Positions 36,563-37,822 of a DNA stretch of 64,000 nt are shown in pieces. Under the pieces are notes generated by a model that saw only the letters and a list, made by a program, of their open reading frames with translations, ran no database searches and was not told the origin of the DNA. The DNA is taken from NCBI GenBank assembly GCA_012798695.1, contig JAAZMR010000079.1:9733-73732 (forward strand). Direction: 5' to 3'. The number at the start of each line of letters is the position of its first letter. Within the stretch, counting starts at the first letter, position 1. Origin of the DNA: Bacillota bacterium. GTDB lineage: Bacteria; Bacillota; Limnochordia; DTU087. Position numbers and translations under genes: made by a program.

Positions 36563-37822
36563 ATGGCTCGGAGTGTTACGCCTTTTGGTGTGATGGTCAA
36601 ACCTGCGGGTCCGGCATGTAACTTGGCCTGTCAGTATTGTTTCTATCTTGACAAATCAGCTCTCTTTCCTGAGTCGCGGACTTTCCGGATGGATGAGAAC
36701 TTGTTAGAGGAGTTTATCCGTCAGTATTTTGAGCTTCAGCCGGGTCCGATGGTGCCGTTCGTTTGGCAAGGGGGTGAACCGAGTTTGATGGGTCTGGAGT
36801 TCTTTGAAAAGGTGGTAGAACTCCAAGACCGCTACTTGCCGTCTGGTTGGCGAGTGACGAACGCTTTCCAGACTAATGGCACGCTGCTCACCGAAGAGTG
36901 GTGCGATTTCTTTCACGAGCATGATTTTCTAGTGGGGATTAGTCTAGACGGGCCACCAGAGCTACATGATGTTTACCGGCAGAATAAACAAGGTGGCCCC
37001 ACGGCCACTGTAGTCTTGCAGGCTTTACACCTGCTGCAAGAAAAGAATGTGGAATATAATATTCTGTGTGTAGTCAATGATGTGAATGCCCAGCATCCTC
37101 TTTCAGTCTACGAATTCTTCCGGGCTCAAGGTGTGCAGCATGTTCAGTTTATTCCATTGGTTGAGCATTTAGGCAATGGCAGAACCACTACTAGATCGGT
37201 ATCAGGTTTGGCGTATGGCCGGTTTCTTACCGCGATTTTCAACGAGTGGGTAGCTCATGATCTGGGGCAGATGTTTGTTCAGCTGTTTGAAGAATGCCTA
37301 TCGGTATGGGCTGGCTATGGTTCCCATCTCTGCGTTCTCGCACCGACTTGCGGGCAGCAGCTGATCCTGGAACATAATGGAGATTTATACGTATGTGATC
37401 ATTTCGTATTTCCCAGATTCAAGCTCGGGAATCTGCGGCAGAAGCCTCTTCATGAGTTAATCGAATCTCCACAGTTAAGGGATTTTGGTTTAGATAAGCG
37501 TCGTAGGTTGCCTGACTATTGCCGGCAATGCGAAGTGCTATTCATGTGCAACGGGGGATGCCCCAAGGACCGTTTTCTTTCCACTCCTTCAGGGGAGGAG
37601 GGCCTCAACTATCTTTGCGCGGGATATAAGCAATTCCTCAACTATGTTACTCCATTCATGGAGGATATGGCCGACTTGTTTCATCAGCGAGCACCACTGG
37701 CAGTGATGCAAGAGGGGGCAGTCACACGTATTCATGATTTGTGGAGACATGTCGGCCGCAATGAGCCGTGTCCGTGTGGAAGTGGACTAAAATACAAGAA
37801 GTGTTGTCAGGGGCTACAATGA
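36563..37822 (+). CDS. radical SAM/SPASM enzyme, anaerobic sulfatase-maturating-enzyme (anSME)-like, with C-terminal SEC-C zinc motif
   Basis: CNLACQYC (Cx3Cx2C) near the N-terminus; [12 protein letters not shown]; Cys-rich SPASM region; C-terminal [23 protein letters not shown] RBS at ATG 36563. Confidence 0.8.
   Translation: [419 protein letters not shown]

Follow-up and report, generated by a model that had tools for sequence, protein, structure and literature searches.

Anaerobic sulfatase-maturating enzymes (anSMEs) carry a [4Fe-4S] cluster, bound by a CX3CX2C motif, that reductively cleaves S-adenosylmethionine (SAM). The Clostridium perfringens enzyme, anSMEcpe, is known from solved structures (PDB 4K36-4K39), and its published list of cluster ligands includes a cysteine, Cys-261, whose equivalent is missing from other SPASM enzymes, those of the type acting on ribosomally synthesised peptides that are modified post-translationally (RiPPs) (PMC5491770). 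Genomes with many sulfatases and one or few anSMEs are common, and the single anSME of Bacteroides thetaiotaomicron serves many unlinked sulfatases and is needed for sulfated-glycan use (PMC7771511). The SecA-type metal-binding domain (MBD) is a C-terminal module that binds SecB and the ribosome and that SecA shares with YecA/AscA and YchJ and, in many bacteria, with the methionine aminopeptidases (10.1101/613315; 10.1101/2020.07.21.215244). YecA/AscA uses its SecA-like MBD for binding to both SecB and the ribosome (10.1101/2020.07.21.215244), iron has been described as a physiological ligand of these domains, which bind iron as well as zinc (10.1101/613315), and the C-terminal cysteine pair of YchJ acts as a disulfide switch sensing reactive oxygen species (PMC13377102). 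Here we analyse a gene at positions 36563..37822 (+) of a 64,000-nucleotide stretch of DNA from a Bacillota bacterium (assembly GCA_012798695.1, contig JAAZMR010000079.1), referred to at its full length as the window, that joins these two systems. The gene is rightly annotated as an anSME, its chromosomal surroundings are unremarkable, its "orphan" position is normal for its family, and the very large, multi-phylum anSME group to which it belongs carries a strictly conserved SecA-type metal-binding tail.

The gene forms an intact open reading frame (ORF) of 419 amino acids, running from an ATG at 36563 to a TGA at 37820-37822 on the plus strand, and its product is identical to GenBank protein NMB46457.1, which originates from a Bacillota metagenome-assembled genome and bears the NCBI name "anaerobic sulfatase maturase". 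Inspection of the sequence places a Shine-Dalgarno element, GAGGGGGG, at 36550..36557 (+), 5 nt before the start codon. An alternative in-frame ATG at 36548 appears to be an unlikely start, because both the Shine-Dalgarno element and the homologues and the GenBank protein, all of which begin with MARSV, favour 36563. Three Pfam domains were recovered above their gathering thresholds: Radical_SAM (61 bits), SPASM (42.9 bits) and SEC-C (PF02810; 38.3 bits, with a cutoff of 20.4). A preliminary description of the locus had read the protein as an anSME-type radical SAM/SPASM enzyme ending in a SEC-C tail, and this reading is borne out in both respects, since the motifs that it quoted are all present (among them CNLACQYC at residues 19-26 and FQTNGTLL at residues 102-109), the two enzyme domains are confirmed by Pfam and the tail is genuine.

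The same description had proposed that the protein be assigned with hidden Markov models (HMMs) for anSMEs and for the other SPASM subfamilies. The best model was TIGR03942, the equivalog-level NCBIfam profile for anaerobic sulfatase maturases, which scored 474 bits against a cutoff of 349.45 and was matched over positions 2-362 of 363, and the models for RiPP-type SPASM maturases all remained far under their cutoffs. Scores for the RiPP-maturase models were 188 bits for DynA (cutoff 450), 178 for DarW (650), 156 for DarE (650) and 145 for GrrM (310), and lower for the others, leaving the protein 260-470 bits short of the DynA, DarW and DarE cutoffs. The window protein also shares its family with the Bacteroides-type anSMEs (ChuR/BT0238; NF010308) and with Klebsiella AtsB. 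It scored 436 bits with NF010308 over residues 6-384, but this lies under the 484-bit equivalog cutoff of that 412-position profile, which has no SEC-C tail and whose match ends at profile position 404, corresponding to query residue 384.

The solved structure closest by sequence is anSMEcpe (PDB 4K36, E = 3.5e-67), with 33-34% identity over approximately 370 residues, and the alignment of the two proteins places every cluster ligand in register. The radical-SAM motif C19-x3-C23-x2-C26 (CNLACQYC; 36617..36640, +) aligns with C15, C19 and C22 of anSMEcpe, and the SPASM region, at residues 257-352 (37331..37618, +), matches its counterpart position by position. In this region, the predicted ligands of the first auxiliary cluster (Aux I), C257, C263, C278 and C333, correspond to anSMEcpe C255, C261, C276 and C330, whereas those predicted for the second (Aux II), C320, C323, C329 and C352, correspond to C317, C320, C326 and C348. 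D279, which follows the third Aux I cysteine, aligns with Asp277 of anSMEcpe, the residue that was reportedly proposed as the general base in the work on the anSMEcpe structure. Among 24 aligned homologues, the 11 cluster cysteines and D279 show no variation, and the ligand that sets anSMEs apart from RiPP-type SPASM enzymes, Cys-261, is retained as C263. In agreement with these assignments, an AlphaFold2 model of the window protein (pLDDT 88.6, pTM 0.89) returned anSMEcpe chains (4K36-4K39) as its eight best Foldseek matches in the PDB, with target-normalised TM-scores of 0.86-0.90. The RiPP SPASM maturases (DynA, DarW/DarE, GrrM/OscB and ChlB, PDB 9GM3) share the radical SAM and SPASM scaffold and supply the next-best HMM and structure matches, but the window protein differs from them in its Cys-261-equivalent ligand, in its sub-cutoff HMM scores and in having no precursor gene. 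Together, these results demonstrate that the gene encodes an anaerobic sulfatase-maturating enzyme by family, by cluster residues and by fold, and that it is an ordinary member of this known family.

The window protein departs from anSMEcpe at its C-terminus. The chain of anSMEcpe stops at residue 370, whereas the window protein is approximately 48 residues longer, adding a second helix and the SEC-C domain. In the AlphaFold2 model, residues ~352-398 (37616..37756, +) form a predicted helical extension made up of two helices (352-374 and 379-395; pLDDT 85-95), which joins the anSME core to the metal-binding tail. This linker is poorly conserved in sequence, and across 70 homologues the first cysteine of the tail lies 39 to 66 residues (median 50) beyond the core YLCxGY motif. 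The SEC-C domain proper occupies residues 399-416 (37757..37810, +), where C403, C405, C414 and C415 are the predicted metal ligands, arranged as C403-P-C405-GSGLKYKK-C414-C415 in the pattern CxCx8C[CH]; model confidence is lower here (pLDDT 73-86). The tail is nearly identical (E = 2e-8 to 1e-6) to the SecA MBD peptides of Haemophilus influenzae (1OZB, crystallised with SecB), Escherichia coli (1SX0 and 1TM6) and Bacillus subtilis (1TF2), and to the C-terminal domain of YchJ (9L6B).

Conservation of the tail extends well beyond the metal ligands. In 79 homologues it follows the consensus G-R(96%)-N(100%)-[DE]-P-C-P-C-G-S(100%)-G-x-K(100%)-[YF](88%)-K(100%)-x-C-[CH], with residues other than ligands conserved at 88-100%, a level that matches that of the ligands themselves. 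The SecA consensus, GRN[DE]PCPCGSGxKYKxC[CH], with its conserved serine and aromatic residue, is essentially identical, and in SecA the MBD is likewise found at the extreme C-terminus, after a poorly conserved linker (10.1101/613315); SecA, however, is a translocation ATPase, whereas the carrier here is a radical-SAM enzyme. YecA/AscA, YchJ and the methionine aminopeptidases, although unrelated, have also gained this module at their C-termini, and their catalytic domains differ from that of the anSMEs. With the methionine aminopeptidases there is a precedent for pairing an MBD with an enzyme that acts on nascent or unfolded chains; ribosome binding by the anSME tail may be proposed by analogy with these proteins. 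The tail is absent from anSMEcpe and from the curated Bacteroides-type and Clostridium-type profiles and, to our knowledge, Klebsiella AtsB has no SEC-C tail either.

Homology searches revealed that the combination of an anSME with a SEC-C tail is widespread. We surveyed one genome per species (GTDB representatives) and analysed the best 80 loci, the top match being 70% identical to the window protein. The CxCx8C[CH] tail is present in 76 of these 80 loci, distributed over more than 10 phyla that include the Bacillota, Poribacteria, Chloroflexota, Planctomycetota, Verrucomicrobiota, Acidobacteriota, Ignavibacteria/Bacteroidota, Myxococcota, Latescibacterota, Gemmatimonadota and Armatimonadota, and cultured isolates such as Halanaerobium saccharolyticum and Citreicoccus inhibens are among the hosts. 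Among the top 120 database homologues, which reach down to 50% identity, PF02810 was likewise detected in nearly every protein. Several tailed homologues (from Bacillota, Halanaerobiales, Poribacteria, Armatimonadota and Fervidibacter) already carry the NCBI name anaerobic sulfatase maturase, and the anSME/SEC-C architecture is precomputed in databases from Pfam. The earlier suggestion that such a fusion would be new is thus overturned: the architecture is known, catalogued and named, and defines a large multi-phylum subgroup for which we found no biochemical study. Tailed anSMEs are therefore a known and annotated subgroup, but nothing in the literature searched presents them as a characterised one.

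The same loci provide a measure of how often tailed anSMEs lie close to a sulfatase. A PF00884-type sulfatase occurs within 10 kb in 27 of the 76 tailed loci, in many cases only 0-120 nt away, and in the remaining 49 there is none; in a separate look-up, a 54%-identical homologue was found with two PF00884 genes immediately upstream. On a neighbour-joining tree, sulfatase-linked and unlinked genes are interleaved, and the branches nearest to the small clade of the window gene (loci L022, L030 and L006) are linked. Because 49 of the 76 tailed loci are unlinked and both states interleave on the tree, the lack of a neighbouring sulfatase is the majority state of the tailed clade rather than an anomaly. 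The premise of the preliminary description that anSMEs normally sit beside their sulfatase is not supported by this distribution, nor by the service of many sulfatases by one anSME in B. thetaiotaomicron, and its suggestion of an unknown substrate conflicts with the Cys-type sulfatases near 27 of the 76 tailed homologues, those on the nearest branches included. Linked sulfatases are exemplified, among loci L012-L084, by those at 1720-3252 in L022, 2687-4147 in L030, 11327-12736 in L028 and 12603-14003 in L041. Two other tailed loci of approximately 58% identity, L005 and L091, have a larger radical-SAM gene (554-563 amino acids, PF04055 only) just upstream of the anSME, at 2630-4294 and 8073-9764, respectively, and an Rnf complex operon a few kb downstream of it.

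We consider it probable that the window gene encodes a functional anSME that acts in trans, on at least one Cys-type sulfatase whose gene lies elsewhere in the genome, with the tail serving as a SecA-type MBD docking module. The components of this proposal carry different weight: that the substrate in this genome is a sulfatase seems likely, and a docking role for the tail, which we infer by analogy, is possible but doubtful. Following the established chemistry of the family, the cluster held by C19, C23 and C26 would cleave SAM to yield a 5'-deoxyadenosyl radical, which would abstract a C-beta hydrogen from the cysteine (or serine) of a C/S-x-P/A-x-R motif in a still-unfolded sulfatase. The electron would leave through the two auxiliary clusters, both fully ligated by cysteine, and hydrolysis of the resulting thioaldehyde would give formylglycine. 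Acting in trans on at least one Cys-type sulfatase, the enzyme would resemble the anSMEs of hosts whose sulfatases are scattered over the genome. The tail, borne on a helical linker of ~25-50 residues, could anchor the enzyme on the ribosome or, in organisms that have it, on SecB, so that the target cysteine would be oxidised on the nascent, unfolded chain.

Several observations weigh against this proposal. Three sulfatase signature patterns, searched in all six frames of the 64-kb window, gave zero matches, and an HMM built from 57 sulfatases of related loci found none there either. When 48 ORFs of the window were scanned with Pfam together with three spiked control sulfatases, PF00884 was detected on the three controls only. 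The absence of a nearby sulfatase, which the preliminary description had reported for several kb, thus extends to the whole window, and the three closest relatives of the locus (L010, L011 and L090) likewise have no sulfatase within 10 kb of the anSME. A literature search on anSMEs combined with SEC-C or SecA returned no paper discussing the combination, and no tailed anSME appears to have been characterised. Furthermore, tail-less anSMEs such as anSMEcpe work without the SEC-C module, and it is purely by analogy that the tail is assigned a docking role. Finally, most sulfatases found beside tailed anSMEs, 29 of 43, are leaderless, which makes it unlikely that a SecB- or export-coupled version of docking could be general.

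This last count derives from the 43 full-length sulfatases located within 10 kb of tailed anSMEs, at least 39 of which are of the Cys type. Their N-termini were judged from the longest possible ORFs with a home-made HMM, and without a signal-peptide predictor; on this basis, the first beta-strand is preceded by no more than 20 residues in 29 of them and by more than 35 in only eight. The 29 would have no room for a signal peptide and are presumably cytoplasmic. Since most neighbouring sulfatases are leaderless, docking on the ribosome is favoured over coupling to export and offers the most economical account of the tail, and we put forward, very tentatively, that the tail docks the enzyme on the ribosome and that formylglycine is installed co-translationally on leaderless, cytoplasmic Cys-type sulfatases. 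If docking on the ribosome or on a chaperone were true, it would explain how the maturase, before the sulfatase folds, gains access to a target residue that is otherwise buried, and it would matter for making active sulfatases in heterologous hosts and for formylglycine-tagging technology. In the case of ribosome docking, the tailed anSMEs of more than 10 phyla would be ribosome-associated radical-SAM enzymes modifying nascent chains, analogous to the methionine aminopeptidases that carry an MBD.

The main alternative to ribosome docking is that the tail has no docking function and acts instead as a redox- or iron-sensing switch, or as a purely structural metal knuckle, serving to protect or regulate a three-cluster enzyme that is oxygen-labile. 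The role of iron as a physiological ligand of SecA-like MBDs and the redox-active cysteine pair of YchJ are in line with this possibility. Tailed anSMEs occur in many hosts that are not strict anaerobes (Poribacteria, Acidobacteriota, Caldilineaceae and Planctomycetota), which also speaks for it, and the AlphaFold2 model, with its fairly high pLDDT of 73-86 in the tail, would allow the tail to pack on the core. The arginine, asparagine and K-Y/F-K surface residues of the tail are, however, as strictly conserved as in SecA, a pattern that points to a conserved binding partner more than to a bare metal site, and we regard a sensing or purely structural role as unlikely.

Functional drift would offer a different account of the isolated position of the gene, with the enzyme retaining an anSME-like C-beta oxidation, or performing a cross-linking reaction, directed in trans at a different protein or peptide; it would then be a true orphan maturase, as the preliminary description had suggested. 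Such drift would be compatible with the lack of sulfatases in the window and near the anSMEs of its closest clade, and with the fact that proteins close to anSMEs in sequence, DynA and DarW/DarE among them, carry out other chemistry. Against it stand the score of the protein, which lies well over the anSME equivalog cutoff and far below those of DynA, DarW and DarE, and the retention of C263, the anSME-specific eighth SPASM cysteine. In addition, every invariant residue is common to the sulfatase-adjacent homologues of the same alignment, and the nearest outgroups are sulfatase-linked genes, so that a substrate other than a sulfatase appears improbable.

We attach equally little likelihood to a coupling of maturation to Sec export, in which the tail would bind the SecB/SecA machinery and sulfatases would be modified just before translocation. 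Exported sulfatases need to be modified in the cytoplasm, while they are still unfolded, which fits such a scheme, as do the match of the tail to the SecA peptide co-crystallised with SecB (1OZB) and the binding of YecA/AscA to SecB through the same domain. Yet Bacillota are generally without SecB and, as described above, few of the neighbouring sulfatases have an N-terminus long enough to exceed 35 residues before the first beta-strand. Export coupling was accordingly downgraded as the main explanation for the tail, given that most of these sulfatases are leaderless.

The remaining possibility, a RiPP maturase with an overlooked small precursor gene, is suggested by the SPASM architecture and by short ORFs in the upstream gap, but is effectively refuted, because those upstream ORFs fall within a lineage-specific 206-nt duplication of the 3' end of an Mrp/ApbC-like gene, the gaps of the syntenic relatives (70-72% identity) span just 37-53 nt on the upstream side of the anSME and 75-97 nt on its downstream side and leave no room for a precursor gene, every RiPP-maturase HMM stays below its cutoff, and the protein opens directly with the radical-SAM core, with neither a RiPP recognition element nor an extra N-terminal domain. 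The flanking gaps of the window gene contain just short, non-conserved ORFs, one of them a 36-residue relic of the Mrp-like C-terminus, and an adjacent RiPP precursor was rejected on these grounds, in keeping with the preliminary description, which had found no precursor gene nearby. An Rfam search of 34000-38300 gave no match at E <= 1, and hence no riboswitch or other upstream RNA element.

On the plus strand, the anSME gene is preceded by an Mrp/ApbC-like P-loop gene (34246..35046) and by azlC-azlD (35149..36239), and it converges with a sugar ABC transporter on the minus strand (38018..41670). The three closest relatives (L010, L011 and L090) share this arrangement, which is not found outside them. 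Synteny is thus limited to the immediate clade and provides no general hint on function, and a functional link of the anSME to the upstream Mrp/ApbC iron-sulfur carrier and AzlCD was rejected for this reason.

The repeat relic that had been reported upstream of the gene was found to be a direct repeat of 206 nt, with 90% identity and sharp boundaries, at 34914-35119 and 36278-36483. The first copy comprises the 3' end of the Mrp/ApbC-like gene and its terminator hairpin, and the second lies between azlD and the anSME, so that the two copies bracket azlC-azlD; all that remains of coding sequence in the second copy corresponds to the final 36 residues encoded by the Mrp-like gene. Judging from the sequence of the 70-72% relatives, which have just 37-53 nt between azlD and the anSME, the second copy is lineage-specific, and the repeat could have been left behind when the DNA around azlCD underwent duplication or recombination. 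Two other public contigs, L001 and L002, which come from independent assemblies and carry an identical gene, stop 399 nt and 278 nt, respectively, before the start of the anSME gene, equivalent to window positions ~36164 and ~36285. These ends, at or beside the second copy, are consistent with assembler breaks there and support the repeat as real, and not an assembly artefact.

The second copy includes a strong hairpin followed by UUUU at 36435..36461 (+), with a folding energy of -21.2 kcal/mol (z = -6.2) that none of 200 shuffled sequences equalled, and which duplicates the hairpin at 35072-35096 after the Mrp-like gene. This hairpin probably terminates azlCD transcription and insulates the anSME gene, which would therefore need its own promoter; a simple scan of the plus strand between hairpin and start codon, which may miss one, detected no sigma-70-like promoter. 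Downstream, convergent terminators had been proposed, and only the minus-strand element can be upheld. The intrinsic terminator of the convergent ABC substrate-binding-protein gene (38018..39043, -) lies at 37971..37998 (-), with -27.5 kcal/mol and z = -7.2, and delimits the anSME locus on its 3' side, whereas the plus-strand hairpin that follows the stop codon of the anSME cannot be told from shuffled sequence (z = -0.9) and lacks a U-tract.

Genes of the URO-D family (PF01208) were observed near tailed anSMEs in three contexts, at 32972-34012 in the window, at 6596-7699 in L005 and at 11746-12687 in L006, and the window contains a second paralogue at 23003-24064. A conserved link was rejected, since in the 80-locus survey a homologue of the URO-D gene of the window was found only in the syntenic locus L010, and the association is probably coincidental. 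According to the Pfam scan of its ORFs, the window holds ordinary chromosomal content with nothing tied to sulfated-glycan use. Its two largest ORFs (1209 and 1344 amino acids; 14306-21926) have AddB/AddA-type helicase-nuclease domains (ADDB_N and PDDEXK_1), and its other genes encode, among others, ATP synthase subunits, a GH42 beta-galactosidase, G6PD/6PGD and a ZnuA/ABC-3 zinc uptake system.

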